64,000 nt of DNA from Candidatus Acetothermia bacterium (GTDB lineage: Bacteria > Bipolaricaulota > Bipolaricaulia > RBG-16-55-9 > DRXL01). The notes under the pieces were generated by a model. It saw only the letters and a program-made list of their open reading frames with translations. It had not been told where the DNA came from and made no database searches. The DNA lies in the NCBI GenBank assembly GCA_016179105.1, contig JACOSB010000120.1, positions 489-64,488 of the forward strand, given 5' to 3'. The position numbers were made by a program, and so were the translations under genes. Shown in pieces: positions 9,127 to 31,670 of this stretch (within the stretch, counting starts at the first letter, position 1; every line of letters starts with the position of its first letter).

Positions 9127-12100
9127 CTATAACTTCTGTTCAAGTGCGTACTCGATCGCTTGCTCCAGCGTCATCGCGCGGCCTTCGGCCCAAGCCGCAT
9201 CCGATGCTTTTTCACTTAGCCGAGAACGAGCTGCTGATACACGGTGCTCGTAGCCCGCGCGCTCTGCCGGGGTCAAGGGTGCACGAACCGCTTCTCGCAA
9301 CGCTTCAGCCTCTCCGAATAACGTGAGCGCGCGCTCTGGCTGTCCTCGAGCGCTGGCGACAGCAGCCAATCCCTCTAACGAATAGATAAGACCCTGCTTA
9401 CTTCCTACTTCTCGGAATAAAGCCAAACTTTGCTCATGGAATGATCGCGCGGCTGTATAATCCCCTTGAGCACACGCCACGAGCCCCAAATTGTCTATGA
9501 CTAACGCTATGCCGGACTTGTTTCCTACTTCACGGTGCAGGGCCAGACTTTCCTGCAGCCGAGCGCGCGCTGTCTCGTAGTCACCCTGGTATAAAGCTGT
9601 ACTCCCTAGGTTATTCAACATGACGGCAATCCCTCGATTGTCTCGCAACTCGTGCTTGATGGCGAGACTCTCTTCGTACAGAGAACGCGCGGTGGCATAG
9701 TCTCCTTGAGCATCGGCCACTTGCCCCAAGTTACTGAGCAGATTCGCAATCCTCTCCTTGTCTCCTAATTGGCGGAAGAGCTGCAAGCTATGCTCCAGGA
9801 GCTCTCGCGCTTTCGCATAATCTCCTTGGTAATGGGCAATCATTCCCAAACTGCTCAGCGTAAGCGTCATCGTATGTTGATCTCCTAGCTCTTGTTCGAT
9901 CGCCAAGCTTTCTTCAAAGAGAGGGCGTGCCGCTTCATAATCTCCCTGACTGTATACGATCAAGCCCAAGTTATGGAGAGCCGCCGCGAGGGTTTTGGGG
10001 TTGCCCAGCTCACGGACAAGAGTGAGGTTTTCTTGAAGCAGGGAGCGCGCCCTGACATAATCACCCTGCAATGAGGCCATAATGCCCACACAGGTAAGCG
10101 CTTTGGATTTTACGTCAGCCGGAACCGTAGTACTGGAGGCTGCCAGCATCGCTTCGGCCCATTGGCGTCCTTCGCTCAGCGGGCCATGCAGATGCCAAAA
10201 TCGCCAGACCGCTGCCATCATTCGTACCCCTTGTTCGACCAACCCTCCTTCAAGGGACCACGCCAGCGCTGCTCTCAGGTTGTTGCGCTCTTGCTCGAGT
10301 TTTTCGAGCCAGCGCTTCTGATTCGATCCCTTCAGCTCTGGCTCGGCCCGCTCAGCTAATTTCATAAACCATTCCAAGTGCTGAGAGCGAATTGCTTCTA
10401 GCTCTTGTGCGCCACGCAGTTTCTCTTGAGCATACTCTCGCACGGTCTCCAATAGCCGATAGCGCATCTCGGGGGCGCGTCGCTCAACGATCACCAAAGA
10501 TTTCTGGACCAAGCGACTGAGGAGGTCCAGGACTTTATGTTGCTCAACGTCCGATTCACCGTTGTAGGGGCGAGATAACCTCGCCCCTACACCCTGGGCA
10601 CACACGCCCTCCACTGCCTCCAACGTAAATCCTCCGGCAAAGACCGAAAGCCGACGTAGCAACGCCTTTTCATTCTCTGAGAGCAATTCCCAACTCCAGT
10701 CCATGGTGGCCCGCAGCGTCTGGTGCTGAGGCAGAGCCGCACGGCGATGACTCGCGAGCAACCCAAACCGATCTGCCAGCCGATCGGCGATCTGCGGGAT
10801 CGATAAGACATTGAGTCGTGCAGCCGCGAGTTCAATCGCCAAGGGCAACCCCTCGAGTTGCTGACAAATGCGAGCCACGTCCCGCGCGTTCTCCGGCGTG
10901 AGAGCAAATCCCGGCTGGCTCACCAGTGCTCGGGTGATAAAAAGACTCACCGCTTCATACTGCGCCAAGATCTTCGGAGCCGGCAGAGGCTCTCGATCGG
11001 GCATAGAGAGCGGCGGCACGGACCAGACCGTCTCTCCGTCTAGTCCCAAGGCCGCGCGGCTCGTAGCTAGAATCTGCAAGTTCGCGCAATTTTCTAAGAG
11101 TATTTTAATTAACTCCGCACACGCGTCTATCAGATGTTCACAATTATCTAAGACAAGGAGCGTCTGCTTGAGTCGCAGATGATCCGAGAGAATCCCTAAA
11201 GTAGGACGATCTGGATGCTCGCGCAGGCCGAGTGCCGAAGCGACGGTCTTCGCGACCAATGTCGGGTCGAACAAAACGCCCAGTTCGACCCACCAGATTC
11301 CGTCAGGAAAATCGGGAAGCACGTCGGTGGCCACTTGGAGAGCGAGTCGGGTTTTGCCGCTGCCCCCCATACCAGTCAGCATCAACAGTCGTGTCTGTAG
11401 GGGCGACCGGCCGGTCGCCCCATCCGTGAGCAAGCGTTTGACCTCAATGATCTCCCTCTCTCGCCCAACGAAACTGGTGAGCGCTGACGGGAGATTGTTG
11501 GGATAAACATATGGAAATGCGGCGACTTCGCCGTTAGAAATTTGCTCTTGCACGGCACGCAACTCGTGAGATGGCTCGGCTTGCAAATGCGTCTTCAGTG
11601 CCTCGACACACTGCTGGTACGTTTGCGAGGCAAGCGCCTGCGCTCCAGCGTGATAATGAAAGAGCATTTTTTGCCGAACGATACCTTCGTTCCAAGGCTG
11701 GAGCGCGAGCGCCCGCTCGCAGCACGCGATCGCACGATCGAGCTGGCGCAGGCGTGCATGAACGTCGGCAAGCCGAGCGAGTGCTTTTAGAAAAAGCTCA
11801 CGCCAACGTTCACGGGGAGCGAGCGTCCACTCTTCATAAAGGTCTTCAGTGAGAAAATCGCCCTGATAAAGTGCGACGGCTCGTTGATAGTTTTCTAGAG
11901 CTTGGAGCCAGCGCCCGGCTTGTTCGGCCTCGTGAGCATCCTGAAAAAATTTCTGAAATGCTTCGGTATCGAGCCAGCACGGAACGTCTTTACTAAAGCA
12001 ATAGCCTTGCAATTTGACGTGTAGGATGAATCGAGAATCTGTGCCCTTTTTGAGCTCCGGCTCCAGAAGGCGGCGCAGCTCGCTGATCCGTCCATGCAAG

Positions 12101-12312
12101 CTGAGCACGGCCTTTCCTAAATCCATCTCTGAAAAGAGCGCTTCGATCAACTGATCTTGCGTGAAGAAGCGACCGCGCTCCGTGAGCAATAGTTTTAGGA
12201 GTTGCTGGGTCTTGCGTTGAGGCCAAGCTTGCAGGGGCGACAGCGTTTTCCCGAGCTGCACTGTGAAGTGCCCGAGCATCGTGATTCGGAGCAAAAGCTC
12301 GTTCATGTTCAA
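9127..12312 (-). CDS. AfsR/SARP-family STAND transcriptional regulator (OmpR-type wHTH + BTAD + NB-ARC/AAA ATPase + TPR array), paralog A
   Basis: N-terminal MLGHFTVQLG wHTH and a BTAD region. Walker A GMGGSGKTRLALQVA. The C-terminus carries about 8 TPR-like repeats of pattern QGDYxxAxxLxEESLxxxRELGD. Transcribed divergently from the fibre-gene block. Confidence 0.8.
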   Translation of the reverse strand: MNMNELLLRITMLGHFTVQLGKTLSPLQAWPQRKTQQLLKLLLTERGRFFTQDQLIEALFSEMDLGKAVLSLHGRISELRRLLEPELKKGTDSRFILHVKLQGYCFSKDVPCWLDTEAFQKFFQDAHEAEQAGRWLQALENYQRAVALYQGDFLTEDLYEEWTLAPRERWRELFLKALARLADVHARLRQLDRAIACCERALALQPWNEGIVRQKMLFHYHAGAQALASQTYQQCVEALKTHLQAEPSHELRAVQEQISNGEVAAFPYVYPNNLPSALTSFVGREREIIEVKRLLTDGATGRSPLQTRLLMLTGMGGSGKTRLALQVATDVLPDFPDGIWWVELGVLFDPTLVAKTVASALGLREHPDRPTLGILSDHLRLKQTLLVLDNCEHLIDACAELIKILLENCANLQILATSRAALGLDGETVWSVPPLSMPDREPLPAPKILAQYEAVSLFITRALVSQPGFALTPENARDVARICQQLEGLPLAIELAAARLNVLSIPQIADRLADRFGLLASHRRAALPQHQTLRATMDWSWELLSENEKALLRRLSVFAGGFTLEAVEGVCAQGVGARLSRPYNGESDVEQHKVLDLLSRLVQKSLVIVERRAPEMRYRLLETVREYAQEKLRGAQELEAIRSQHLEWFMKLAERAEPELKGSNQKRWLEKLEQERNNLRAALAWSLEGGLVEQGVRMMAAVWRFWHLHGPLSEGRQWAEAMLAASSTTVPADVKSKALTCVGIMASLQGDYVRARSLLQENLTLVRELGNPKTLAAALHNLGLIVYSQGDYEAARPLFEESLAIEQELGDQHTMTLTLSSLGMIAHYQGDYAKARELLEHSLQLFRQLGDKERIANLLSNLGQVADAQGDYATARSLYEESLAIKHELRDNRGIAVMLNNLGSTALYQGDYETARARLQESLALHREVGNKSGIALVIDNLGLVACAQGDYTAARSFHEQSLALFREVGSKQGLIYSLEGLAAVASARGQPERALTLFGEAEALREAVRAPLTPAERAGYEHRVSAARSRLSEKASDAAWAEGRAMTLEQAIEYALEQKL
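10564..10590. repeat. GTAGGGGCGAG-loop-CTCGCCCCTAC palindromic element copy lying in-frame inside regulator A CDS
   Basis: gtaggggcgag ataac ctcgcccctac. In the gene frame it is translated as ...QGVGARLSRPYN... Confidence 0.6.
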
Positions 12313-12513
12313 TCCTATCGCTGCCCACTGATCTCGATCTTATCTAACAATCAAGGCGTTGCCAAATGGTTGAGTCAGTCCTCCCCTGTCCATCCAACGG
12401 GGAAGGCCGGCGCGAAGCGCAGGTGGGGCTTGGCCCCCATCCCTGGCCCTTCCCCCCGTAGTGACCCACAGAGGGGAAGGGAAACGATCTCCCAGTAGTC
12501 GTTTTTTTATCTT

Positions 12514-12532
12514 AGAAGGTCACCAGAAGGTC
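12514..12532 (+). promoter_or_regulatory. direct repeat AGAAGGTC-n3-AGAAGGTC (11-bp periodicity), candidate SARP-binding site / promoter of the fibre-gene operon
   Basis: agaaggtcaccagaaggtc lies about 20-60 bp upstream of the first ORF of the + strand block. SARPs bind direct repeats at 11-bp spacing overlapping the -35 region. Confidence 0.3.
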
Positions 12533-12551
12533 GCTCGATTACAGTTAGGCC

Positions 12552-12779
12552 ATGTCTGAGCAAACGATCACCCAGACAAAGGAGTGGAAGCCGATGAGCT
12601 TTATCGTGCGATTTCACCCGGCTCTGCCGGACGGTCAAGAGGACTGGCGCGGCCAGGTCGAGCATGTGCAGACGGGCGAGAAGCGTCCCTTTCGCGGAGC
12701 GCAGCAGCTTATGCAAATCATGGAAAGTTTCTTTGAGCTTGAAGCGAAAGAACTGAATACCGAGGAGGTAAGGCCATGA
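12552..12779 (+). CDS. small hypothetical protein (62-75 aa) translationally coupled to the first fibre gene
   Basis: Its stop overlaps the ATG at 12776 (ATGA). An internal start with an AAGGAG RBS exists at 12591. No recognisable domain. Confidence 0.4.
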   Translation: MSEQTITQTKEWKPMSFIVRFHPALPDGQEDWRGQVEHVQTGEKRPFRGAQQLMQIMESFFELEAKELNTEEVRP

Positions 12780-12805: not shown

Positions 12806-14326
12806 ATGAAGAATTTCAGAGTGCGGCAGATGTGGGTGGCGGTGTTGACAACCATCTTGATCGTGGCGGGATCAATCGGACTGGCCGAAGCCAAGGCGCT
12901 GTTCGTCGCGAACAACGGACTGGATATCGCTACGTGTGGAGCCATCGCGAGTCCCTGTCGCACGATTAGCAAGGCAATTGAGAACGCTGACCCTGGAGAT
13001 AAGATCATCGTCGGTCCGGGGCGTTATGGGGATCTCGACGGAGATGGAACATTCAATCCGATCCTGGGAGAAGAAAAGGCAGAAGTAGGCACGGGTTGCT
13101 TCTGCATGATCAAACTGGACAAGCCCTTGGACATCGAATCACGGGATGGGGCTGCTGCCACCGTGCTGGATGGCGGCAAAGAACTCAGCGCCGTGGTGGG
13201 CATCTTCGCCAGCAATGTCGTCTTTGGCAGGAAAAAGAAGGGCTTCACTCTCACCCACGGAAACCTCGGCATGTACATCAATTTTGGAACGAGTGGGGTA
13301 AGAGTGGAAGGCAACCTCGTCAGCGCCAATAGCACCCTTGGTTTCAGGATCCATGGCAACGGACATGTGCTTAGCAGCAATCTCGTCATCGCCGACGGCT
13401 TGACGGGTTTCGAACTTAACGACAGCGGACTTGTGCTAAACGGTAACCAAGCTATCGCCAATATGCTTGGTTTCGTCCTTAACGGGAGCGGACATCAATT
13501 GTCGGGCAACATAGCTAGCGCTAATAGCGACAAGGGTTTCGCGATAGGAGGCAATGGGGGGCATCACTTCAGCAGCAATGTCGCCAGTGCTAATGGGACT
13601 GGCTTCGATGTCGCTTTCGGCAATAGTAATGTGTTCACCGGCAACATTGTCCATGGGAATCGCTCCCATGGCTTTTTGATCGAGAGTGGCGCTGGACATA
13701 TGCTCACGGGCAACTCTATTCTGGGCAACGGAGGGTTCGGCATCGATCTAAGTTCTGGCGCCGGTGCCACCATCACCAAGAATAACATCTATGGCAATGG
13801 CGAGGGGCTGCGAGATGACTCGGGGGCAGAAACCAATGCAACCAACAACTTCTGGGGCGCCGCCACTGGGCCTGGGGACAATCCGGCAGACGGGCTCTTG
13901 ATCGGCCCGACCAGCAACACGATCTTCACCCCTTTTGCGACCAAGGAGTTCAAGATCAAGACGGTCACGCCTCTAGCAGAGCCGGGACTCATCATCCTGA
14001 CTGATCCTGAGCAGAGCGAGATTCCGCAAGCCCCTAGTCTGACACCCATTCAGTTCTTGAAAGCGCTGCAAACCAAAGAGGGGTGGCTCTTCCGCACGAC
14101 TGGGAATGTGAGCGCACTGCGGCTGGAGGTCATGGACTTATCCGGCAAGAAAATCTATGACAGTGGGCTCGTGAAGGGACAAACGCTCAGTTGGACTCGT
14201 GTCAACGCAAAAGACCAATCCGTCGCTAAGGGGGTGTATCTCTACCGGCTCACAGCACGCGATCGAGATGGCAATGAAATTCACAGTGAGCTACGCAAGC
14301 TCATCATCGAAAATTTCTTTGAGTAG
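12806..14326 (+). CDS. secreted right-handed parallel beta-helix (PbH1/NosD-like) repeat protein with C-terminal FlgD-Ig/T9SS-CTD-like domain
   Basis: Signal peptide MKNFRVRQMWVAVLTTILIVAGSIGLAEA. At least 9 tandem ~22-aa GNxxxxNxxxGF repeats. C-terminal ...GVYLYRLTARDRDGNEIHSELRKLII. An alternative start at 12776 is also RBS-supported. Confidence 0.7.
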   Translation: MKNFRVRQMWVAVLTTILIVAGSIGLAEAKALFVANNGLDIATCGAIASPCRTISKAIENADPGDKIIVGPGRYGDLDGDGTFNPILGEEKAEVGTGCFCMIKLDKPLDIESRDGAAATVLDGGKELSAVVGIFASNVVFGRKKKGFTLTHGNLGMYINFGTSGVRVEGNLVSANSTLGFRIHGNGHVLSSNLVIADGLTGFELNDSGLVLNGNQAIANMLGFVLNGSGHQLSGNIASANSDKGFAIGGNGGHHFSSNVASANGTGFDVAFGNSNVFTGNIVHGNRSHGFLIESGAGHMLTGNSILGNGGFGIDLSSGAGATITKNNIYGNGEGLRDDSGAETNATNNFWGAATGPGDNPADGLLIGPTSNTIFTPFATKEFKIKTVTPLAEPGLIILTDPEQSEIPQAPSLTPIQFLKALQTKEGWLFRTTGNVSALRLEVMDLSGKKIYDSGLVKGQTLSWTRVNAKDQSVAKGVYLYRLTARDRDGNEIHSELRKLIIENFFE

Positions 14327-14383: not shown

Positions 14384-15163
14384 ATGAATCGTTTCTTAAC
14401 GTTAACGGCTGTGGCGTTCGTTGGCGTGGTGATTTGCGTTGGATCGGCTCAGGCTCAGAACACCATTGTGAAAGTCAATTTTCAATACGCGGTCAAGTTT
14501 GTCTGTGGCCAGAGTGCAGAAGACCATTTACAGGCAGTCAAGGGGATTTACACGACAGCGGTGAACGTGCACAATCCGGGTGTGTTTAACGCGGTCTTCG
14601 CTGAGAAAATAGCCATCGCGCGCCCTCAAGAAATAGCTGGACCCATTTCGAAATTCCGATTATCTCAATTGCCATCGGATGCCGCCTTCGAACTAACTTG
14701 CGAGGAGTTTTCCTCAGATACACAGACCAAATTTGTCACCGGTTTTCTGGTGATCGAAAGCCCTGTGGAACTGGATATCACAGCGGTTTACACCGCCCGA
14801 CCGAGTGATGGCGAGGTCAGCACGATCGACGTAGAAACCATCGCATCTCGTAAGGTGCGCCTCACACTATCGGTCGAGCCAGGGCCACAAGCGGACATCT
14901 CTCTGGTTAACAGCCACGGGCAGTTACACTTTAATGTGATGGGTTTGGAGTGGCAAGTTCAGTCCACAGCGTTGTCTGTCTTTGATTTACAAGGAAAGAT
15001 CGTCTACACGTCGGGCAACATCCAAGGCGCTGCACTAAACTGGAATTTCACTGCGACGAATGGACGAGCGGTGGCCAACGGTGTCTACCTGGCAGTGATT
15101 ACCGCCAGAGGCAAACTAGGTCAGCTGATCACTTCGACGCGAAAAATTGCAGTTTCTCGTTAA
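14384..15163 (+). CDS. secreted protein with C-terminal FlgD-Ig/T9SS-CTD-like beta-sandwich (GVYLAVITA motif)
   Basis: Good RBS (aaggagg). Signal peptide MNRFLTLTAVAFVGVVICVGSAQA. The C-terminal ~70 aa align with the Ig-like module of neighbouring genes. Confidence 0.6.
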   Translation: MNRFLTLTAVAFVGVVICVGSAQAQNTIVKVNFQYAVKFVCGQSAEDHLQAVKGIYTTAVNVHNPGVFNAVFAEKIAIARPQEIAGPISKFRLSQLPSDAAFELTCEEFSSDTQTKFVTGFLVIESPVELDITAVYTARPSDGEVSTIDVETIASRKVRLTLSVEPGPQADISLVNSHGQLHFNVMGLEWQVQSTALSVFDLQGKIVYTSGNIQGAALNWNFTATNGRAVANGVYLAVITARGKLGQLITSTRKIAVSR

Positions 15164-15221: not shown

Positions 15222-17038
15222 ATGACGCATGTACGCGGAGTTGGTATCTGGCTGGCTGGGTTCGTCCTGGCACTCAGCAGTATGGCCACAACAAGTTGGG
15301 CGGCAGGCCAAGGACCATCCTTCAGCGTCCTTGTCGAGGAGCAAGCTTCAGGGTATCGCTTCTCGGTTCAAGCAGAGGACGTCACTTCAGTTCGGGTCGC
15401 CATCTTGCGCCTGGATGGTCGACGGGTCTTCCAGAGCGATTGGATCGTGGGTCCTACAGTCACCTGGCCGCTCGCAACATCATCCAATCAGACTCCCGCC
15501 CGCGGAGTCTATCTGTACGCGGTGAGCGCTCGCGATCAACACGACCGTGAGCAACGCAAACTGGGCAAGTTGGTCGTTTCCTTCGGAGCGGAGTCCTCAC
15601 TGAGCCTGCCTAGCTTGGACCAGTTAGCAGGGAGTCAGCCTTCGGCCCTTCCCAGCGGAGTGAAGTGGAAAGAGCTTTTAGGCAAAGACAGTTTGGACAA
15701 TTTCCGCATCCAGCGCCAGCCTGGCAAAGGGCAAGCTTTCCAAAACTTGCTCACGCTGGACAATGCCGGGAATTTGAGCGTGGCGCAACTCTGCTTGAGT
15801 GAAGTCTGCCTCGCGAGCTGGCCTAGTGGGGGAGGAGGCACTTTCACGTTAGCAGATGGGTCCGTCACGTTAGCCAAGCTGGCGAACCAGGACTGCGGGG
15901 CGGGCAACGCGATCCGGGGCTGGACCGGTGGAGTGTGCTGAACTGTGCCAGTCTTGGGGGCGGAGGGACACCCAGTGGCTGGGTCGATGACGGTACAGTC
16001 GTACGGTTGGCAGACGCAACAGACAAGGTCGGCATCGGGACGACGGGACCACAAAACTTACTAACTATCGGTCCAAATCCATCTGCTGCCTCCAATGCGA
16101 ATGAATTATTACAGTTGGCAAAGAACGAAGACGCATATATGACGATACGAGATGGAACTGCTACTGCTCTTTTGGGCACTACTAGCGGTCTTCCCTTCGT
16201 TGGTAGCCAATCGAATCATGACTTTACCATTCGCACGAACAATGCAGAGAAGGTCAGGATTACAACAAGCGGCAACGTCGGCATCGGGACTATTAGCCCC
16301 AATACGCGGTTGGAAGTGCAAGGCCCGGATACAAATCTTGACACGAAAGCCTTCAAGGTTAGCAACTCAATTGGCTTTGCCGGGTTGATCGTTTGGGACG
16401 ACGGAACTGTGCAAATCGGGACCCTTGTCGACAACCCGAAGACACAACATGCTTGCCTGACCCTCGGACTTTATTTCGCCACGTGCAGTTCCGCCGCCGA
16501 GTATGTTCCCACTGTTGATGAAGGACAGGGTTATCCCATCGCGGGTGATTTAGTCAGTATCGCGCCCACCCTCAAGAATCCGTATAGCGATGATCACGGT
16601 CCCTTCGTGGTCGCCAAGACGAACAAGCCCTGCGACGAGAATCTAATCGGATTTATTCTCGACCCCAAGTTGGGTGCTGACGGCAAGAAACTCAACGAGC
16701 ACTATATGCCGCTCGGCATCTACGGCTACTTCCCTGCGAAAGTCACGATGGAGAATGGGCCTATTAAGCGCGGCGATCCGATCACGTCCAGTTCCAAACC
16801 CGGCTACGGGATGAAAGCGACGCAAGCCTGCAAGATCATCGGCTATGCGCTCGAAGACGCGGACAAAGAAGGTACGATTCAAGTCTTCGCGCATCTGAGC
16901 GAGAATGCCGCACCGGAAGTGACGGCGCTGCGTGCGAAAGTGAGCGAATTAGAGCAAGCAAGAGCTCAGGAGAACGAGGAGTTCCGCAAGAGAATCGAGA
17001 CGCTAGAGAAGATCGTAGCAAGGCTCACGGCTAAGTGA
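15222..17038 (+). pseudogene. fibre-family protein (type I N-terminal Ig-like domain + IGTTxP repeats + family-A C-terminal domain + coiled coil) interrupted by a frameshift at ~15931-15941
   Basis: ORFs 15147..15941 and 15935..17038 are collinear with the intact paralog 17933..19756. The paralog has GWTGGVLNCISVGGGG; here GWTGGVC* is followed by LNCASLGGGG in another frame. Nucleotide alignment shows 2 extra nt (gtgtGCtgaactg vs gtgttgaactg). Confidence 0.6.
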
Positions 17039-17065
17039 TGTGAATGGCTTCGGGGCTTGGTGGGA

Positions 17066-17518
17066 TCATTGCGACTCGGCAAGCCCCCACATGCCCAGCC
17101 ACTGTATCCGTTTGGCTAGCGGCGCGTGACTCAAAGCTTTCACCAGCCGTTGGTCCGCCGTGATGAAGACCGCATCGCGCTGCTCAGCCAATGCCACATA
17201 CAAAGCATCGTAGACGCTGCGCTGGTAAACCCGAGCAATCTCCCAGGCGCTCTCCACAAGGGAAAGCGACGCATACAGCTGAATCGGAAAGGAAGTACGA
17301 ATATGACCAAGAACCTGCTGCACCTCCGACGGTGCAAGCTCCCCGAGCCTGTGCTTCTTCCAAAGGATATTGCCCAACTCGGCCACAATCAGATCTGGCG
17401 CGAGCAGACGGCTGTCCTCCTCGGCAGCGGCTTCCAAAAATTGTTCGGCTTGGCCGGAGAGAACTTCCGGCAGATACCATTTGATCGCCACGCTGGCATC
17501 CACGACGAAGCGCTTCAT
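17066..17518 (-). CDS. vapC: PIN-domain toxin VapC
   Basis: MKRFVVDASVAIKWYLPE... carries the conserved acidic residues of a PIN domain. Overlaps the upstream antitoxin stop by 4 nt. Confidence 0.8.
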   Translation of the reverse strand: MKRFVVDASVAIKWYLPEVLSGQAEQFLEAAAEEDSRLLAPDLIVAELGNILWKKHRLGELAPSEVQQVLGHIRTSFPIQLYASLSLVESAWEIARVYQRSVYDALYVALAEQRDAVFITADQRLVKALSHAPLAKRIQWLGMWGLAESQ

Positions 17519-17751
17519 CGGCGGCGGTCCTCGCGCAGCAAGTGGACGCTGTCGCTGAAGGTGCGGCCGGAGCGGGTGAGCTTGCGGCGGAGTCGGCGGG
17601 TGCCGGCGAGCGCCTCGTGGGCCGAATGTTTTACGGAATCTTCCAAGATCGCTCTCAACTCTTGTTGGAGCGAGCGATGCTGTCGGATGGCACGTTCTTT
17701 GAGAGTCTTCAGCACCTTGTCGGGTACATCACGTATTAAGATATTGGGCAC
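17515..17751 (-). CDS. vapB: VapB-type antitoxin (ribbon-helix-helix/FitA-like), probable GTG start
   Basis: N-terminus (M)PNILIRDVPDKVLKTLKERAIRQHRSLQQELRAIL is a typical RHH antitoxin. AAAGGA RBS sits 8 nt upstream of the GTG. The longer ATG-initiated ORF (to 17808) is also possible. Confidence 0.6.
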   Translation of the reverse strand: MPNILIRDVPDKVLKTLKERAIRQHRSLQQELRAILEDSVKHSAHEALAGTRRLRRKLTRSGRTFSDSVHLLREDRRR

Positions 17752-17769
17752 AGTAGGATTCCTTTCTGA

Positions 17770-17786
17770 TGCTATCACAATGATAG
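17770..17786. promoter_or_regulatory. perfect inverted repeat GCTATCA-caa-TGATAGC immediately upstream of vapB, candidate autoregulatory operator
   Basis: Seen directly in the sequence. TA operons are typically autorepressed via palindromes at the promoter. Confidence 0.4.
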
Positions 17787-23906: not shown

Positions 23907-26900
23907 TCATTCTGTGCTCGTGTCTAACGCATACTCGATCGCCTGCTCGAGCGTCAGTGATTGACCTTGGGTCCAGGCAGCTGCAAAAACTTTCTCCTCA
24001 AGCTTCTCACGGATTGTAGCTACAGTGCGATCAAAAGCAGCGCGATTGGTCGGCGGCAAAGAAGCACGCATGGCCCCGCGCAGAGCCGCGACGGCTCCGC
24101 AAAGATGAGCAGCGCGCACAAGCTGACCTTGGGCGAGCGAAACCACTCCCGTCCCTTCGAGTAAGAACGCGATGTTCCATTTATCTCGCAACTCCCGTTG
24201 CAAGAGTAGTCCCTCTTCATAGAGCGCATGAGCGGATGCATAATCACTTTGTTTTAGGGCAACACTGCCCAGATTATTGAGAGAGTTGGCGAGGCCCGGC
24301 TTGTCTCCTAGCTCACGACGTAAAGCCAGACTTTTTTCATAGAGCGTTCGCGCTGTTTGGTAGTCCCCTTGATTCTCTGCTACACTCCCCAAGTTGTTGA
24401 ACAAATAAGAGATGGCTTGTTTGTTCCCCAACTTTGTGTTGATCTCGAGGCTCTCTTCATAGAATGCTTTGGCTTGCGTATACTCACCCTGGGCTCGCGC
24501 GATGAGCCCTAAATTGTTGAGCAAGATAGCAATGCCGGCGGCGTCTCCTAATTTACGAGAGAGATTCAAGCCCTCCTCAGAGAGGGAGCGCGCCCGTGTA
24601 TACTCACCCTGCTTCCAGGCGATCGACCCCAAATTCTGAAGAGTTTTTGCCATGTCTCTCTCGCCTCCCAGACCTCGAAAGATCGCTAGACTTTCTTCGT
24701 GATAAGAACGTGCTGTGAGATAATCTCCTTGTCCTTCAGCCAGAGTGCCGGCCGCGTTGAGCGCCTTGGCACTCGTGATAGTCCTCTTGAGACTCCCGGC
24801 CTGTGCAAGGACAGAAGCCACTTGTGATCGCCCTTCTGTGAGATAGCCGCGAACAAGCCAGAAAGCACTGAGTGCGGTTACCATGCGCAACCCAGCTTCC
24901 GTTTTTCTTCTATCTTTGGCATATTCGAGTGCACTGCGCAGATTGTCTTGCTCTTGCTCCAATCGCTCCAGCCAGCTGGATTGAGCGGGCCCCTGCAGTT
25001 CGGACTCTGCTTTTTCTGCCAGAGCAAGGAACCAATCAAGATGGCGCTCGCGCAAGACCGATTCTTCTTTGGAATCAAGAAGTTTCTCCCGACCGAACTG
25101 GCGCACGGTCTCTAGCAGGCGATACCGTGTCTCTCCGTCTCGCTGATCCACAAGCACTAGCGACTTGTCTATGAGGTGAGTCAGTAAATCCAAAATTTCT
25201 GTAAGGGCGATTCGTGAATCGCCCTTACGAAGATCATCTCTTGCACAGATCGTCTCTACGGCCTCCAACGTAAACCCGCCCGCGAAGATAGACAACCTGC
25301 GCAGCAATGTTTGCTCAGCGGATGAGAGCAGATCGTAGCTCCAGTCCATCGCAGCCTGTAGAGTTTGTTGTCGCGGAAGCGCCGTCCGGCTGCCGCTCGT
25401 GAGCAACCGGAAGCGATCGTCCAGCCGCGCCGCGATCTCTGTGACAGACAAAACTTTCACGCGTGCCGCCGCGAGCTCGATGGCCAAGGGCAAGCCATCC
25501 AGCTTCTGGCAGATCTGCATCACCGCAGGGGCATTTTGTAGGTTCAATCCAAATTCCGGTTGACTAGAGAGTGCCCGCTCGACGAATAAGCTTATAGCTT
25601 CGTATTGTTTTAAAATCTTCAAAGGCAAGGAATCGTGAGCGTCGGGCTGCACGAGCGGAGGCACTTGCCAAACCGTCTCTCCTGCGATGCCCAGCGCCTC
25701 ACGGCTCGTGGCCAAGACCTGAAGATCTGGGCAGGTGTGCAATAGAGTCTCTGTCATGTGCGCACAGGCACTGATCAAGTGCTCACAATTGTCTAGAACC
25801 AGGAGCATTTGTTTGGATTTTAGATAGTCTGAGAGTGCGTCTGTCAACGAACATTGCTGTGTCTCGCGCACTCCCAAGGCAGACGCGATGGCTTGCGGGA
25901 CGAGCTTTGGGTCGGAGATGGATGCCAATTCTACCCACCAGACTCCATCCGAGTAGTCTTTCACCATACTTGCGGAAACTTGCAACGCGAGGCGTGTCTT
26001 GCCGCTGCCCCCGGCTCCAGTGAGAGTAAGTAATCTCGTCGTGTTGAGTAACCATTTCACTTTGACAATCTCGCGCTCGCGCCCGATGAAGCTGGTCACA
26101 GAGCTGGGCAGATTGTGCCGTGCCGGACTCGCGGGCGGCGGGTAGCCTTGGCTGGAACGCTCTCCACGCACAATCTGCTCGTGCAATGTGCACGTCTCGG
26201 GCGACGGTTTTGCACTCAAGTGCTCTTCCATTACTTTGGCACACTCGGCATAAACTTGCAGTGCTTCGCTGTGCTGCCCTGCGAGCGAGTGATAGAGCAT
26301 CTGCTGGCGATAGACGCTCTCGCGTGTGAGCTCTTGTTTCAAGATTTTTCCGCATTGTTCGAGTGCTTGTGGATACTGCCCCAGACGCGCATGGCATTCG
26401 GCGCATTGCGAAAGCGCGGTCAGATAGAGCTCTCGCCAATGTTGACGCGGGCTGAGCGTCCACTCTTCATAAAGGTCTTCGGCCAAGAAATCACCCTGAT
26501 AGAGATCGAGAGCTTGGCGATATGTGTCCAATGCTTCCGGCCAGCGCCCGGCTCGTTCTGAGGCTTGGGCAGTCTCCATCTTCTTTTGGAATTCTTCGGT
26601 GTCGAGCCAACAGGAAGAATCTTTGCTAAAAGAATATCCACCCTGGCGCTTACTCACGATGTAGTGTGAGTCCAAGCTCTTGTCAAGATTAGGCTCTAAT
26701 GCGTGGCGCAGTTCTCCGATGCGTCCGTAGAGATTCTTCGCGGCTTTCGCGGGCTCAAGGTCGGGAAAGAGTGCTTCGATCAGTTGGTCCGGGCTGAAGA
26801 TTTTTCCCCGGTCGGTGAGCAGGATTTTCAAGAGCGACAACGTCTTGTGGCGCCCCCAGGCTTGGGCAGGGACGAGCGCATCCTCACGCCAGACTTCAAA

Positions 26901-26978
26901 GCGACCAAACAGCTTGACCCGGAGTCCTTTGGTGCTCGTCCCGCTCATGAGATACTCCCATCGCCCTGCTGCGCTCAT
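23907..26978 (-). CDS. AfsR/SARP-family STAND transcriptional regulator (wHTH + BTAD + NB-ARC ATPase + TPR array), paralog B
   Basis: Collinear with paralog A at about 45-50% identity. Walker A LTGAGGSGKTRLALQV. At least 8 C-terminal TPR repeats (QGEYxxA...EESLxI...LGN). Divergent from fibre genes 27089 onward. Confidence 0.8.
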   Translation of the reverse strand: MSAAGRWEYLMSGTSTKGLRVKLFGRFEVWREDALVPAQAWGRHKTLSLLKILLTDRGKIFSPDQLIEALFPDLEPAKAAKNLYGRIGELRHALEPNLDKSLDSHYIVSKRQGGYSFSKDSSCWLDTEEFQKKMETAQASERAGRWPEALDTYRQALDLYQGDFLAEDLYEEWTLSPRQHWRELYLTALSQCAECHARLGQYPQALEQCGKILKQELTRESVYRQQMLYHSLAGQHSEALQVYAECAKVMEEHLSAKPSPETCTLHEQIVRGERSSQGYPPPASPARHNLPSSVTSFIGREREIVKVKWLLNTTRLLTLTGAGGSGKTRLALQVSASMVKDYSDGVWWVELASISDPKLVPQAIASALGVRETQQCSLTDALSDYLKSKQMLLVLDNCEHLISACAHMTETLLHTCPDLQVLATSREALGIAGETVWQVPPLVQPDAHDSLPLKILKQYEAISLFVERALSSQPEFGLNLQNAPAVMQICQKLDGLPLAIELAAARVKVLSVTEIAARLDDRFRLLTSGSRTALPRQQTLQAAMDWSYDLLSSAEQTLLRRLSIFAGGFTLEAVETICARDDLRKGDSRIALTEILDLLTHLIDKSLVLVDQRDGETRYRLLETVRQFGREKLLDSKEESVLRERHLDWFLALAEKAESELQGPAQSSWLERLEQEQDNLRSALEYAKDRRKTEAGLRMVTALSAFWLVRGYLTEGRSQVASVLAQAGSLKRTITSAKALNAAGTLAEGQGDYLTARSYHEESLAIFRGLGGERDMAKTLQNLGSIAWKQGEYTRARSLSEEGLNLSRKLGDAAGIAILLNNLGLIARAQGEYTQAKAFYEESLEINTKLGNKQAISYLFNNLGSVAENQGDYQTARTLYEKSLALRRELGDKPGLANSLNNLGSVALKQSDYASAHALYEEGLLLQRELRDKWNIAFLLEGTGVVSLAQGQLVRAAHLCGAVAALRGAMRASLPPTNRAAFDRTVATIREKLEEKVFAAAWTQGQSLTLEQAIEYALDTSTE

Positions 26979-27088
26979 TATACGCCAGTTTGCTCGAAAT
27001 CGCCGCCATCCGGAAGAAGGGTGTGACCTAACTGTAACCTTCTTCTTCTATGCTCAATGCAATGGAGAAATCCCAAGGAGGGATCAAG

Positions 27089-29227
27089 ATGAACGTCAAG
27101 AATTCACTGAAGCTCTTGGTCGTCCTGTCGCTGTTAGCTTTCTCAACAGCGGTGGCAGCTCAACCGGTGTCGTCGTTCCACGTGTTTGTGGAAAAACAAG
27201 CTTCCAATTATTTCTTCTCAGTGCAGGGAGAGAACGTCGCGTCCACACGAGTGGAGGTTTTGGGTCTAAACGGTAGGCCGATCTTTGATAGCGGATGGAT
27301 ACTGGGGCAGACGGTGGCTTGGCCGCTGATGACTCTTAATGGGCAACCTGCCGCCAATGGAGTCTATCTCTATGCAATCAGCGTAAGAGATCAGCAGGGT
27401 AAGGAACAGCGCAAGCTGGGCAAACTGGCAATCGTGCAGGGGCTGAAGCTGTTGTTGAGCACGCCTGACGTGGACGATCTGGTTCAGGTCCAGCCGATGG
27501 CTTCGGGGGCGCAATGGAAAGAGCGTCTGGCAAAGGATGGACAAGATAATTTTCGGATTCTGCGCAATGGTGCTGCGCTACTGACCCTGGACAGTAGCAG
27601 CCGACTGACGGTGGCTCAGCTTTGCTTGGCGGGAGATTGTCGCAACGTCTGGCCCGCAGGCGGAGGTCCCACTCTCGCCTGGTTGCTCAGCGGCAACGCG
27701 GGTACCACGGCAGGCACGAACTTTTTGGGAACTACGGACAATGTCGCTCTGGAACTGAAAGTGAACAGCCAGCGCGCGCTGCGCATTGAGCCTGGTTCGA
27801 CACCCAATCTCATCGAAGGCTTTAGCGGCAACTTTGCTGGCGCGGGCGTAGTCGGCGCCGCTATCGGCGGCGGCGGAGCCAACGGCACCAATAATCGAGT
27901 GCTCGACGATTTTAGTACGATCGGCGGGGGATTGAATAACCAGGCGGGTGATGGCAATGGATCCACAGCAGACCACGAGTTGGCGACCGTCGGCGGAGGA
28001 GCAGGCAACCAAGCCACCGGTAATAATTCTACCGTGGGTGGAGGTCTAGGGAACACTGCCAGCGGTGGTTTCTCCACGATTCCCGGGGGGATGTTCAACA
28101 CAGCCTTGGGTGATTTCAGCTTTGCCGCAGGCCGACGTGCCAAGGCTAACAATCAGGGCAGCTTCGTCTGGGCTGATAATTCAGTCGATGCTGACTTCGC
28201 TTCCACAGCAGACAATCAGTTCCTTATTCGCGCGAGTAAAGTCGGCATCGGCACGACGACGCCTGGGTATAAATTGGACGTCAACGGGGTCGGGCGCTTC
28301 CAGGGCTTAGAGGGCGGAGCGTCCAGCGGCGCAGGAGTAGAGATCCAGTATGGCAATGTGGGTGGAGCAACCCGCGGTATCGTCTTTGCGTTTGACCGGT
28401 CGGCAGGAGCTCCCCGAGATTTGCTCTTAAACCACCCCGGCGGCAATGTCGGCATTGGCACGACCAGCCCCAGTGCCGGGCTAACTGTCCGTGACGTAAA
28501 TCCCAGCGCCTTGAACTTTGTCTTTCGAATAGAAGACTCGACTGGGGCTCAACTATTCGCGGTCGACGACATCGGACGCGCAGGGACGAAAAGCGGCTTC
28601 ACCGTTGGTGCCTTCGCGCCAGCCACGACTACTCACGTTTGTCGCACCACCGCTCCGCCAAGCGGCCCGGGCATATTGGCCGAGTGTTCATCGGCAGCAG
28701 AGTATGTCCCCACTGTGGAAGATAGCAATGGATATCCCGAAACCGGAGATCTGGTGCGCGTTCTGCCCTCAGTCAAAAATCCCTTCGGAGATAAACACTC
28801 ACCTTTCGTCGTAACCAAGACCAGCAAGCCGTGCGATAGCGATCTATTGGGTTTCTTGCTCAAGCCCGAGCTGGGAGCAGATGGTCCGAAGTTGAACGAA
28901 CACTATCGGCCGCTCGCGATCTTCGGCTACTTTCCCGCCAAAGTGACTATGGAGAACGGGACTATTAAGCGAGGCGATCCGATCACGTCGAGCTCTAAGC
29001 CCGGCTACGGCATGAAAGCGACCCAAGCGTGCAAGATCATCGGTTATGCGCTCGAAGATGCAGATAGAGAAGGAACGATTCAGATCTTCGCGCACTTGAG
29101 CGAGAGTGCAGCGCCGGAAGTGACGGCGCTCCGAGCGCAAGTGCAAGAGCTGCACCAACAATTGCAACAAGTACTGAGCCAGTTGGATGCGATCAAAGCC
29201 AAGGTAGGGTCAACACCGATAAAGTAA
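27089..29227 (+). CDS. secreted fibre-family protein, type III N-terminal Ig-like domain, YadA-head/Hep_Hag-like Gly-rich repeats, family-A C-terminal domain and coiled coil
   Basis: RBS aaggaggg 6 nt before the ATG at 27089 (the ORF could also start at 27050). Signal peptide MNVKNSLKLLVVLSLLAFSTAVAA. Its C-terminus is near-identical at nucleotide level to those of genes 15222..17038 and 17933..19756. Confidence 0.75.
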   Translation: MNVKNSLKLLVVLSLLAFSTAVAAQPVSSFHVFVEKQASNYFFSVQGENVASTRVEVLGLNGRPIFDSGWILGQTVAWPLMTLNGQPAANGVYLYAISVRDQQGKEQRKLGKLAIVQGLKLLLSTPDVDDLVQVQPMASGAQWKERLAKDGQDNFRILRNGAALLTLDSSSRLTVAQLCLAGDCRNVWPAGGGPTLAWLLSGNAGTTAGTNFLGTTDNVALELKVNSQRALRIEPGSTPNLIEGFSGNFAGAGVVGAAIGGGGANGTNNRVLDDFSTIGGGLNNQAGDGNGSTADHELATVGGGAGNQATGNNSTVGGGLGNTASGGFSTIPGGMFNTALGDFSFAAGRRAKANNQGSFVWADNSVDADFASTADNQFLIRASKVGIGTTTPGYKLDVNGVGRFQGLEGGASSGAGVEIQYGNVGGATRGIVFAFDRSAGAPRDLLLNHPGGNVGIGTTSPSAGLTVRDVNPSALNFVFRIEDSTGAQLFAVDDIGRAGTKSGFTVGAFAPATTTHVCRTTAPPSGPGILAECSSAAEYVPTVEDSNGYPETGDLVRVLPSVKNPFGDKHSPFVVTKTSKPCDSDLLGFLLKPELGADGPKLNEHYRPLAIFGYFPAKVTMENGTIKRGDPITSSSKPGYGMKATQACKIIGYALEDADREGTIQIFAHLSESAAPEVTALRAQVQELHQQLQQVLSQLDAIKAKVGSTPIK

Positions 29228-29377
29228 ACTGGAATGAAAGCAAAAAACTCACTGGGCCGGGCAAGCTCTGCTCGGCTCCTGTGATTTTCTGGTAGCTGGG
29301 TGCTGGAGCAGCTAACCTGAAGTCGAGCGATCGAGTTGGAACCAAGCGATTGGGGAAATCCCAAAGGAGGGGTCAAG

Positions 29378-31540
29378 ATGAAAGTCAAGAATTCACTCAA
29401 GTTGTGGGTCGTCCTGTCGCTGTTAGCCGTTTCGACAGCAGTGGCCGCAGGACAAGCGTCGTCGTTCCAAGTGCTCGTGGAGGAGCAAGCTTCCAGTTAC
29501 CTCTTCTCGGTACAAGGAGAGAATGTCACCTCCACGCGATTGGAGATTTTGGGCTTAAACGGTAGGCCGATCTTCGACAGCGGATGGATACTGGGGCAGA
29601 CGGTGGCATGGCCGCTGGTGACTCCGACTGGACGACCCGCCGCCAATGGAGTTTATCTCTATGCGATCGGCGTGCGAGATCAGAAGGGCAAAGAAGAGCG
29701 CAAACTGAGCAAACTGGCAATTTTTCATGAGCTACAAGCCTCACTGAGCGTTCCGAGCATAGGCGAAATATCTCAAATTGGGCCATCGGCTCTCCCGGCT
29801 GGAGTGAAGTGGCAAGAGAAGTTGGGCAAAGATAGCGTAGACAATTTTCGGATTCAGCGCCGCCCAGGCAACGGGCAGCCTTTCCAAGACTTGCTGATCC
29901 TAGACAATGCCAGTCGACTGACAGTAGCTCAGATCTGTCTGGCCGGCGACTGCCGCAACGTCTGGCCGGGAGGTGGAGGACCCACTCTGGCCTGGTTGCT
30001 CACCGGCAATGCGGGTACTACAGCGGGCACCAACTTCTTGGGCACAACCGATAACCAGCCGCTTGAGATGCGCGTGAACAACCAGCGGGCGCTGCGCATT
30101 GAGCCGAATGCGACGAGCCCCAACTGGATCGGGGGCTTCAGCGGTAACTCTGTCCGCGCGGGCGTGGCCGGTGCCACAATCGGCGGTGGCGGAAGCGGAG
30201 ATGTTGGAAGAATAAATAAAGTTTTAGAGGAATTTGGCACGGTGAGCGGAGGCTTTGACAATACAGCTGGCGCTGCCTGGGCCACCGTGGGCGGGGGCGC
30301 TGGCAACACCGCCAGCGGCACTCAGGCCACGGTGGGCGGAGGCTTTAGCAACACAGCCAGCGCTCTCGCTCTCTCGGCCACAGTGGGCGGGGGAGGGTTC
30401 AACACAGTCAGCAACGGGTATGCCACCGTGGGCGGAGGCTTCACTAACACCGCCGGCGGCCAGTTTGCCACGGTGGGCGGGGGCAAGAACAATACAGCCC
30501 CCGAGACCAGTTCCACAGTAGGTGGTGGGTTCGGCAACGGGGCAACCGGCCTAGACTCTATAGTGGGCGGAGGCAACCAAAACACGGCGGGCGCTTCTTG
30601 GGCCACCGTGGGCGGGGGCAAGATCAACACGGCTCTTGGCATCAGTTCCACTGTAGGCGGCGGCTTCTCCAATGCGGCCAGCGGCCTTGATTCCACAGTG
30701 CCCGGAGGCCACCAAAACTTCGCCCAGGGGAATTACAGTTTTGCTGCAGGGTTTAGAGCCAAAGCTAACGATCAAGGTGCTTTCGTCTGGGCCGATTCCA
30801 CCGACGCGGATTTCACCTCTACCGCGGCCAATCAGTTCAGTGTACGCGCGAACGGTGGTGCCCGCTTCATCACTCAGCTTTCTACTCCTACCTTTACTTT
30901 AGCGGCTCTCCAGGTGGAGACCGGCGCCACTGGCGGTGAAGCCGCCTGGTTGCGCATAACGAGTTCGGCCAATCCCCAACCGGTCATCAAGCTGCTCAAG
31001 CATCCGAGCGGTACCAATAACTTCCTAGAATGCAGTAATTTCGACAGCACCACCGAGACCACCAAGTGTCATATCAATAAAGATGGTGCCTTCGTGGCGG
31101 GCTCCGACTTTGCCGAATCGCTCCCAGCCAAAGACGGTAAAGCGAACTATGAGCCAGGAGATGTGCTCGTCCTCAGTGTAGATCGACCGGGAGCAGTCCA
31201 GAAGTCAAACCAGCCTTACGATCCAAGAGTGGCGGGCGTCTATTCGACACGGCCTGCGGTGCTGGGTGCCGAAAAGGGCGGAGGAGAGACGCGAGTGGAC
31301 CCTAACGAAATCCCGGTGGCCATCGTGGGGATCGTGCCCGTGAAGGTGACGGCCGAGAATGGAGAGATTCAGCCCGGCGACTTGCTGACAACGTCTAGCG
31401 TGCCCGGCTATGCCATGAAAGCGAAAGCGGTCGTAGTCAATGGGATTGCGATCTATCCCACGGGAACGATCCTGGGGAAGGCTGTGGAGCCGCTGAAAAG
31501 CGGGGCGGGTGTCATCAAAGTGTTGGTGATGCTGCGCTAG
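29378..31540 (+). CDS. secreted fibre-family protein, type III N-terminal Ig-like domain, >12 tandem ATVGGGFxNTAxG (Hep_Hag-like) repeats, family-B C-terminal domain
   Basis: RBS aaaggagggg. The signal peptide and N-terminal 220 aa are about 80% identical to gene 27089..29227. The C-terminal domain is paralogous to that of gene 19753..21894. Confidence 0.75.
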   Translation: MKVKNSLKLWVVLSLLAVSTAVAAGQASSFQVLVEEQASSYLFSVQGENVTSTRLEILGLNGRPIFDSGWILGQTVAWPLVTPTGRPAANGVYLYAIGVRDQKGKEERKLSKLAIFHELQASLSVPSIGEISQIGPSALPAGVKWQEKLGKDSVDNFRIQRRPGNGQPFQDLLILDNASRLTVAQICLAGDCRNVWPGGGGPTLAWLLTGNAGTTAGTNFLGTTDNQPLEMRVNNQRALRIEPNATSPNWIGGFSGNSVRAGVAGATIGGGGSGDVGRINKVLEEFGTVSGGFDNTAGAAWATVGGGAGNTASGTQATVGGGFSNTASALALSATVGGGGFNTVSNGYATVGGGFTNTAGGQFATVGGGKNNTAPETSSTVGGGFGNGATGLDSIVGGGNQNTAGASWATVGGGKINTALGISSTVGGGFSNAASGLDSTVPGGHQNFAQGNYSFAAGFRAKANDQGAFVWADSTDADFTSTAANQFSVRANGGARFITQLSTPTFTLAALQVETGATGGEAAWLRITSSANPQPVIKLLKHPSGTNNFLECSNFDSTTETTKCHINKDGAFVAGSDFAESLPAKDGKANYEPGDVLVLSVDRPGAVQKSNQPYDPRVAGVYSTRPAVLGAEKGGGETRVDPNEIPVAIVGIVPVKVTAENGEIQPGDLLTTSSVPGYAMKAKAVVVNGIAIYPTGTILGKAVEPLKSGAGVIKVLVMLR

Positions 31541-31570
31541 GGTAGTTTCTTTGAGGTGAAAACGTTTTTT

Positions 31571-31595
31571 GTAGGAGCGAGGTCACCTCGCCCCT
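31571..31595. repeat. degenerate copy of the GTAGG(G/A)GCGAGG...CCTCGCCCCT palindromic element preceded by aaaacgtttttt, probable terminator of the fibre operon
   Basis: gtaggagcgaggtcacctcgcccct directly after the stop of gene 29378..31540. Confidence 0.5.
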
Positions 31596-31670
31596 GCAGG
31601 TCTCATGTCCCAATTGGGAGTGCGCAATTCCGGCACCCTCTTCTTCTAAGAGCAAGGCTATAATGACGCC

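Follow-up and report, generated by a model that had tools for sequence, protein, structure and literature searches.

Twenty-one phage-tail-fibre-like proteins that are cellular and located at the surface, the mosaic adhesive trimer (MAT) proteins of Bdellovibrio bacteriovorus, were described in 2024, and the searched parts of that paper (Caulton et al., PMC10769870) depict them as carrying a signal peptide, a conserved beta-rich N-terminal domain of ~130 aa, a trimeric shaft and swappable tips, 13 of which end in an S74 domain and 8 of which do not. The same parts mention such proteins in other bacteria too, predatory and otherwise, and describe no regulator for them. SARPs have been studied almost only as switches of antibiotic clusters in actinomycetes; their targets are direct repeats one or two helical turns apart (11-bp spacing), with the 3' repeat 8 bp from the -10 element (PMC10936776). 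Here we report on a 64 kb stretch of a contig from a metagenome-assembled genome (MAG) of Candidatus Acetothermia (locus tags HYR54_126xx), referred to as the window, in which eight plus-strand paralogous fibre genes (F1-F8) and one remnant form two blocks, each divergent from a regulator gene (R1, R2) encoding winged helix-turn-helix (wHTH), BTAD, NB-ARC and TPR domains. We propose, as a reasonably probable reading, that these are two neighbouring regulons, in each of which an AfsR-type large SARP switches on the adjacent operon of secreted fibres.

Both blocks are preceded by a putative SARP box. Box 1, before block 1, reads AGAAGGT-cacc-AGAAGGT-cgctcgat-TACAGT, and box 2, before F7, reads GTGACCT-aact-GTAACCT-tcttcttc-TATGCT. 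When the whole window was scanned on both strands for the full SARP-box geometry, defined as two 7-mers differing at one position at most, 4 nt between them, then 8 nt and TANNNT, exactly these two sites came back. Each is in the intergenic region between a regulator and its fibre block and is oriented towards the fibre genes; roughly 0.004 and 0.002 such sites would be expected in those two regions. It is through placement and conservation only, not through their count, that the boxes are significant.

The geometry of box 1 is kept in two related loci, L027 and L030 (compared loci are given L numbers and their proteins P numbers), there with the better -10 hexamer TATAGT, and in the more distant L024 both heptamers have been replaced together (AGAACAT-ttct-AGAACAT-8 nt-CAGAAT) with the spacing retained. 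The counterpart of box 2 at L035, a locus with a 79% identical R2 orthologue that likewise diverges into an open reading frame (ORF) with an F-type N-terminus, is GTGACAA-aact-GTGACAT-cgctcgtt-TATGCT; its 8-nt spacer and flanks have diverged. In Anaerolineales, a third heptamer pair of the same geometry (TGACGCT-ttga-TAACGCT-8 nt-TATTCT) is found upstream of the homologue of S, the small gene that opens block 1.

Gene order is conserved along with the boxes. L030, another Acetothermia MAG, has the regulator, S, a beta-helix gene, a 259-aa gene, a split F3, VapBC and a 607-aa gene in succession; L027 has regulator, S, beta-helix, 259 aa and 602 aa, and L024 has S followed by F-type genes. Three Anaerolineales loci (L018-L020) encode a BTAD/NB-ARC/TPR regulator of 960-973 aa, 36% identical to R1/R2 over its full length. 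Downstream of it, on the same strand, come an S homologue, a fibre with the C-terminal module that we call type A, a methyltransferase and a pair of beta-helix-like proteins with Chlam_PMP repeats. In L002, a second fibre cluster of Acetothermia, an R C-terminus persists in decayed form. The link between regulators and fibre genes, which a preliminary description of this DNA had proposed from their arrangement, is thus extended beyond adjacency by the boxes before both blocks and by synteny in other Acetothermia contigs and in Anaerolineales. As a separate observation, at L005 7362..12637 a type-A fibre gene of Chloracidobacterium is divergent from a different wHTH regulator, built of Trans_reg_C and a PD40/Tricorn beta-propeller, and a large TPR protein is encoded two genes downstream on the opposite strand.

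The ORFs listed in the preliminary description exist at or near the positions it gave, and its two-block layout with a divergent regulator of more than 1,000 aa before each block is borne out by ORFs and Pfam domains. Both regulators score above the Pfam cut-offs for Trans_reg_C (R1 31.8, R2 30.2 bits; cut-off 26.2), BTAD (80.2 and 91.4; 22.1), NB-ARC (37.1 and 44.3; 23.5) and TPR, with TPR_12 at 180 and 144 bits and partial TPR_MalT matches. The NB-ARC Walker motifs (GxxGSGKT, LLVLDNCEH) can be read in the translations. R1 and R2 are 49% identical; the true start of R1 is likely the ATG at 12306 and that of R2 the ATG at 26948, the L035 orthologue aligning from residue 11. They have the architecture of AfsR and are not its orthologues, scoring 136-142 bits against the AfsR equivalog NF053617 of NCBIfam, whose cut-off is 1430.

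A stretch upstream of R1 (TTGGCA-17-TAAGAT) is kept in four Acetothermia contigs, and we take it as a predicted sigma-70-like R1 promoter. Between it and box 1, at 12399..12481, lie GC-rich inverted repeats (GGGGAAGG / CCTTCCCC / GGGGAAGGG), at whose place L027 has a different GC-rich palindrome. The exact 11-mer TTACAGTTAGG, present in both intergenic regions, was considered as a common operator and dropped, since it is not kept in L035 and has a different role in each box.

The eight F proteins belong to one paralogous family, as the preliminary description had held. In all-against-all BLAST they are joined by a common Ig-like module of ~70-90 aa with a GVYLY motif, which stands right after the signal-peptide-like start in F3-F8 and at the C-terminus in F1 and F2; its N- and C-terminal versions match one another at E 1e-9 to 1e-13, and the F1 module shares 35-44% identity with those at the N-termini of F3-F8. 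The likeness to FlgD_ig and to type IX secretion system (T9SS) C-terminal domains that had been claimed for this module is reduced to consistent, though sub-threshold, matches and a weak resemblance at the level of fold. The C-terminal module of F1/F2 scores 22.0 (TIGR04183, cut-off 23), 22.3 (CHU_C, cut-off 27) and 17.2 (cut-off 27) bits in searches for T9SS sorting domains, none of which is matched above its curated cut-off, and a PDB profile search with the Ig module gives PorU at E 0.024 and PorZ at E 0.17. A T9SS sorting role is excluded for F3-F8 because their module is N-terminal.

Signal-peptide-like N-termini are present in all eight fibre genes by a hydropathy heuristic or by eye (the start of F4, a near-identical copy of F3, was missed by the regular expression), and a similar heuristic is positive for 84 of 92 homologues. 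Of the nine Sec-signal paralogues originally counted, the eight genes thus stand, and the remnant is without a signal peptide, as is F3b, a part of the split F3. The remnant itself (translation SIASGVYLYRLTPRDRDGNE..., containing GVYLYRLTPRDRDGNE) is an F1-type C-terminal fragment.

The central regions of the family are of several kinds. The beta-helix predicted for F1 passes the Pfam cut-off. F7 and F8 contain long head repeats of the UspA1/YadA type (PDB 3pr7, E 7.6e-14 and 5.5e-26, respectively); the Hep_Hag-like character ascribed to them holds in this form, and Pfam Hep_Hag itself is not matched. The shafts of F3-F6 match tail-fibre families of PHROGs. The F6 shaft repeat (...ERMRI..GNVGIGT..P..L) aligns repeat to repeat with the crystal structures 8oml (E 1.2e-5), 8ond/Bd2133 (2.6e-5), 8ojn (1.5e-4) and 8on4 (2.2e-3); a VG(I)G..P...L-type repeat is visible also in F3-F5 and F7, crystal-structure homology being found for F6 only.

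At the C-terminus, F6 bears the Peptidase_S74 domain that the preliminary description had named for checking by hidden Markov model (40.9 bits, cut-off 22; E 2.5e-10), its SDRNLK matching the SDxxxK motif. F3, F4 and F7 share the type-A module (...CSSAAEYVP...RGDPITSSSKPGYGMKAT...), followed by a coiled coil. A related module, type B, which opens with D[YF]A[ED] (DYAD in F5, DFAE in F8), is common to F5 and F8. The F5 C-terminus matches Peptidase_G2 (PF11962) at 19.1 bits (E 9e-4, cut-off 25), and Peptidase_G2 matches in 2 of 14 family members, with a best E of 5.4e-5, are below the curated cut-off. Type A is below every Pfam cut-off; it has lost the motif Asp (SAAEY) and gained conserved cysteines and the coiled coil. 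Self-cleavage is in doubt for type A because the motif Asp is absent. A structural model of the F4 C-terminus (pLDDT 83.6) is a beta-barrel with a long helix. In the PDB it comes closest to trimeric cement or decoration proteins of phage capsids (Pam3, Borrelia BB1, the phi29 gp8.5 base), and it matches the C-terminal auto-chaperone of phi29 gp12 more weakly in fold (3gqh, 3suc; E about 0.016). A sequence profile likewise finds phi29 gp8.5 (E 0.003, below the curated cut-off). We read the type-A and type-B modules as putative trimerisation or chaperone modules of phage ancestry.

Type A occurs in secreted proteins of Anaerolineae, Acidobacteriota, Rokubacteria and Saccharibacteria. Over 158 aa it is 71-87% identical to F4 in 10 of 12 loci, 55% in a Rokubacteria locus and 35% in a Saccharibacteria locus. 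Between Acetothermia and Anaerolineae/Chloroflexota/Acidobacteriota (L006-L016) the module is 71-87% identical, and the rest of the proteins, S and R are far more diverged; such conservation could reflect horizontal transfer of the module or very strong constraint. In two Anaerolineales type-A fibres (L018 10001..11635, P0059; L019, P0065) an extra SnoaL_2 domain follows the module, making an unusual fibre tip.

The frameshift reported for F3 is real. Relative to F4, F3 carries a 2-nt insertion at about 15935 (frameshift about 15935-15941), and it is not an assembly error because the same insertion is found in the second MAG, L030. When window positions 15222..19756 were compared with L030 5493..10027, F2, F3b and the PIN gene were 99.8-100% identical in nucleotides, F3a 88.7% and F4 96.5%, the frameshift lying within the near-identical block; dN/dS across it is uninformative, with F3b 99.8% identical between the two MAGs. 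This uneven divergence suggests recent recombination or gene conversion within the fibre cluster, as for variable surface proteins. The VapBC-like pair splits block 1 between F3 and F4, over the remnant of the F1-type gene, and the same insertion is present in L030. Beside the fibre genes of L001 there are likewise fragments of toxin-antitoxin, transposase and integrase genes.

Table 1. Features of the fibre locus, with positions in the window; boxes, promoter and terminator are predicted.
Feature	Position	Strand	Evidence
R1, large SARP/STAND regulator	9127..12312	-	Pfam; orthologues of 90-91% identity in L027 and L030
R1 sigma-70-like promoter, predicted	12337..12365	-	Consensus scan; TTGGCA-17-TAAGAT
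SARP box 1, putative	12514..12545	+	AGAAGGT-cacc-AGAAGGT, 8 nt, -10-like TACAGT
S, 61-aa cytoplasmic small protein	12591..12779	+	Upstream AAGGAG Shine-Dalgarno; homologues P0116-P0124
F1, beta-helix with C-terminal Ig-like module	12806..14326	+	Pfam Beta_helix 56.8 bits, NosD
F2, 259 aa, C-terminal Ig-like module	14384..15163	+	Sub-threshold CHU_C and Por_Secre_tail; orthologues in L027 and L030
F3, frameshift-split fibre gene with type-A C-terminus	15222..17038	+	Same frameshift in L030
VapBC-like pair (PIN and FitA-like RHH)	17066..17808	-	Pfam PIN 54 bits, FitA-like_RHH 50.6 bits
Remnant, F1-type C-terminal Ig module	17807..17913	+	Translation
F4, signal peptide, Ig-like N-domain, stem, VGIGT-repeat shaft, type-A module, coiled coil	17933..19756	+	
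F5, fibre with type-B (Peptidase_G2-like, DYAD) C-terminus	19753..21894	+	PHROG tail-fibre E 1.7e-14
F6, fibre with Peptidase_S74 intramolecular-chaperone C-terminus	21921..23804	+	Pfam S74 40.9 bits; SDRNLK
R2, second large SARP/STAND regulator	23907..26978	-	Pfam; 79% orthologue in L035
SARP box 2, putative	27023..27054	+	GTGACCT-aact-GTAACCT, 8 nt, TATGCT
F7, fibre with UspA1/YadA-like head repeats and type-A C-terminus	27089..29227	+	3pr7 match E 7.6e-14
Terminator-like hairpin and T-run between F7 and F8	29254..29288	+	Consensus scan alone
F8, fibre with long UspA1-like head repeats and type-B (DFAE) C-terminus	29378..31540	+	3pr7 match E 5.5e-26

We propose the following model for the two regulons. 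R1 and R2, each with an OmpR-type wHTH and BTAD effector, an NB-ARC ATPase switch and a TPR sensor, would be auto-inhibited until ligand and ATP free the SARP domain, by analogy with AfsR and MalT. The freed domain would bind the two heptamer direct repeats, spaced by one helical turn and ending 8 bp before a weak -10 element, and would recruit RNA polymerase. The R1 box (AGAAGGT x2) would drive S-F1-F2-F3, possibly with read-through past VapBC into F4-F6, and the distinct box of R2 (GTRACCT x2) would drive F7 and possibly F8. The products would be exported by Sec and assemble into MAT-type fibres, whose trimeric state is suggested by the UspA1, S74 and cement-protein modules. The common N-terminal Ig-like domain and stem may dock them on a shared envelope component, leaving variable the shafts (VGIGT beta-prism repeats, UspA1-type head repeats or a beta-helix) and the C-terminal modules (S74, G2-like, or a cement-protein-like barrel with coiled coil). 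The cell could in this way match the fibre set on display to one or other of two signals; the fibres would most likely serve to adhere to surfaces, glycans or other cells. For S, the first product, the analogy of the small AfsS downstream of AfsR suggests probable feedback on the regulator or cooperation with it.

S, a 61-aa gene between R1 and F1, was missing from the gene list of the preliminary description. Its Shine-Dalgarno sequence is conserved, its stop lies 27 nt before the F1 ATG at 12806, and an alternative F1 start at 12776 overlaps that stop (ATGA). A profile search places it in a family that forms 1,532 clusters at 50% identity, nearly all of them 60-110 aa in length, and that has the consensus FIVRLW...WRGxVEHVQSGE...F. 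No family in Pfam, NCBIfam or PADLOC matched it, a fold search gave no significant match, and the motif was not found in a literature search. A metagenome scan for S yielded 4 loci. The gene adjoins SARP regulators in four lineages, including loci where the pair has other cargo (L031-L034, with a 1,433-aa Vgb_lyase/CARDB protein); in L025 and L026 it lies beside a small SARP. Some members carry the S motif in tandem, in two to eight copies (P0262, P0309). A tentative idea, to which we give rather little credence, is that the S family would be a dedicated partner of SARPs beyond Actinobacteria, the first product of a SARP-activated promoter, acting as a co-activator or timer by binding in turn to the regulator or to RNA polymerase. 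Regulator and S would then form a portable cassette of sensor plus small protein that switches exchangeable secreted surface proteins, and Acetothermia would possess two independently inducible MAT-type repertoires, possibly for attaching to partner or prey cells.

Several points weigh against control of the fibres by R1 and R2. With two box-like sites in total, the window does not exceed shuffled sequence (mean 2.3 per window), no SARP-type box is seen upstream of F4 or F8, and all promoter and regulon assignments are predictions from sequence. Control of F4-F6 is uncertain because they lie behind the antisense toxin-antitoxin insertion with no recognisable box, and that of F8 because a terminator-like hairpin precedes it. 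Most type-A homologues in other phyla (Acidobacteriota, Rokubacteria, Saccharibacteria, some Anaerolineae) are without an R homologue within 10 kb, and the Acetothermia contig L001 has none in 9.9 kb. The regulator family is also huge (7,973 of 8,000 candidates at E<=1e-50), with many Acetothermia paralogues, and because SARP-NB-ARC-TPR regulators are so extremely common, some adjacency of regulators and fibres is expected by chance. The pairing might accordingly be a coincidence, in which abundant SARP-STAND paralogues lie beside recombining surface-protein genes and regulate something else, a picture to which the many fibre homologues with no such regulator neighbour would conform, together with the apparently truncated third SARP and the SARP fragment found elsewhere in the window with no fibre genes near. 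We hold this to be distinctly unlikely, given that the window's only two full-geometry boxes sit in these two intergenic regions in the right orientation, that both persist in diverged relatives, with the two heptamers of one co-varying, that the order regulator-S-fibre recurs in another phylum, and that the second fibre cluster, L002, holds a decayed R C-terminus.

The nature of the fibres allows for other explanations. They might supply the tail fibres or tailspikes of a prophage, tailocin or contractile injection system whose other genes lie elsewhere, with the regulators as unrelated neighbours; phage-type modules are indeed present (S74, G2-like and cement-like C-termini, PHROG tail-fibre matches), and a common N-terminal adaptor with variable tips is the organisation of multi-tailspike phages. 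Yet Pfam scans of all large ORFs in the window revealed genes for housekeeping, transport and resistance and no phage structural gene (capsid, terminase, baseplate, sheath, tube or tape-measure), and when the fibre proteins were scanned against PHROGs, the matches were of tail-fibre type only and confined to the fibres themselves. Sec-type signal peptides in nearly all family members are at odds with cytoplasmic virion assembly, type-A homologues have chromosomal surroundings amid housekeeping genes on Mb-scale contigs, and SARP boxes and conserved synteny tie the fibre genes to the regulators; two pattern scans of IMG/VR found no relative of the type-A domain, a weak negative given their low sensitivity. 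A phage-derived particle is therefore very improbable in our view, and the preliminary description was right to argue for a cellular locus. Better placed, and still unlikely, is that the regulation is as proposed and the cell releases the products to forage for polymers, as exo-enzymes or glycan-binding proteins (tailspike-like depolymerases); the TPR domain would then respond to a product of polymer breakdown, in the way that MalT senses maltotriose. In favour, F1 is a beta-helix of the PbH1/NosD type, the Anaerolineales clusters carry beta-helix/Chlam_PMP proteins, locus L031 combines S and a SARP with an SBP_bac_5 binding protein and the large Vgb_lyase/CARDB protein, and MalT and GutR are STAND regulators induced by sugars (PMC10936776). 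Against free enzymes, no catalytic family is recognised in F2-F8, the UspA1 head repeats and MAT-type architecture are typical of adhesins, and the conserved N-terminal module suggests docking over release. Anti-phage defence, with Avs-like STAND NTPases sensing phage proteins and inducing decoy fibres or surface remodelling, would make sense of the STAND and TPR architecture, which resembles pattern-recognition NTPases, of the receptor-binding-type modules in the cargo and of the toxin-antitoxin genes within the cluster. The effector here is a DNA-binding SARP domain, however, not a nuclease or other killing domain; PADLOC matches R1 and R2 with a generic TPR model alone and gives nothing for S or the fibres, and Pfam scans of the window reveal no defence genes flanking the locus. 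We consider a defence role the least probable of these explanations.

Other features of the window were noted in passing. At 31671..32751, a WecA/MraY-type glycosyltransferase family 4 gene follows F8 after 130 nt on the same strand, and next comes tRNA-Ala(CGC), encoded on the minus strand; the glycosyltransferase may be connected with fibre glycosylation or with anchoring glycans. A further Beta_helix/NosD protein of 330 aa (57119..58111, plus strand) lies 25 kb from the cluster with no adjacent regulator. On the minus strand, a third SARP of 304 aa (46721..47635) stops where NB-ARC should start and looks like a truncated large SARP. Near it is a wHTH/SARP fragment (45032..45313), neither having fibre genes near; between the two lies a putative toxin-antitoxin-like pair (45364..45962, minus strand), judged by eye alone.

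In AfsR-type control of the fibres, the same promoter layout before surface-fibre genes in Acetothermia and Chloroflexota would amount to a new class of SARP regulon. The locus offers two specific heptamer boxes for in-vitro tests that need no culture of the organism, extends the MAT fibre architecture to non-predatory, uncultivated phyla with first candidate regulators for such fibres, and brings to light a large unannotated small-protein family linked to SARPs.

The fibres of this locus are MAT-like and its regulators AfsR-like, and neither is a new kind; the fibre half is already known in kind because the F family has MAT architecture. The novelty that the preliminary description implied for tail-fibre-like cellular proteins with signal peptides falls away, since the Bdellovibrio MAT superfamily has that architecture and F6 aligns to MAT crystal structures. 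Its suggestion that the pairing of STAND regulators with fibres is undescribed survives for the combination of SARP-STAND regulator, S and fibres, which was not found in the literature searched, and not for the regulators, which belong to an ordinary, very large family. What appears to be undescribed is the coupling: SARP boxes that precede fibre operons in phyla other than Actinobacteria, a pair of regulators each with a different box and its own fibre set, and the conserved S as the first gene.

The F family and the MATs, as the searched parts of PMC10769870 portray them, are both cell-encoded sets of many paralogues with a signal peptide (predicted in the F family), a beta-rich N-domain, a fibre-like shaft and swappable tips, and both include S74 (SDxxxK) and non-S74 ends, F6 being the S74 member here and the other F paralogues non-S74. 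They differ in that Acetothermia is not known as a predator, that the N-domain of F3-F8 is a ~90-aa T9SS-CTD/FlgD-Ig-like sandwich with a stem, comparable in architecture to that of the MATs, that the non-S74 ends are cement-protein/G2-like barrels with or without a coiled coil and some shafts are UspA1-type head repeats, and that dedicated SARP-STAND regulators and S stand before the clustered fibre genes.

With AfsR and its target afsS the locus has in common the two direct repeats of 11-bp period, the 3' repeat lying 8 bp from the -10 element (PMC10936776), and a first target gene, presumed in this locus, encoding a ~60-aa protein (AfsS there, S here). R1 and R2 share the domain order of AfsR (OmpR-type wHTH, BTAD, NOD/NB-ARC, TPR); they are not AfsR orthologues, the host phyla here are Acetothermia and Chloroflexota, and the targets would be surface fibres, not pathways of secondary metabolism. 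S itself, judged by eye, presumably bears no resemblance to AfsS.

Long runs of UspA1-type head repeats bring F7 and F8 close to the YadA/UspA1 adhesins, from which the F proteins differ in their phage-type C-terminal module and N-terminal conserved domain; Pfam scans of the F proteins found no YadA-type C-terminal membrane-anchor beta-barrel. Among phage chaperones, F6 has a bona fide S74 of the K1F/T5 type, F5 and F8 have the D-[YF]-A-[ED] motif, and F5 weakly matches Peptidase_G2 of the phi29 gp12 type, and the type-A model superposes on the cement proteins Pam3 and BB1, the phi29 gp8.5 base and the phi29 gp12 C-terminus. In contrast to these phage proteins, those of the F family are cellular and bear signal peptides.

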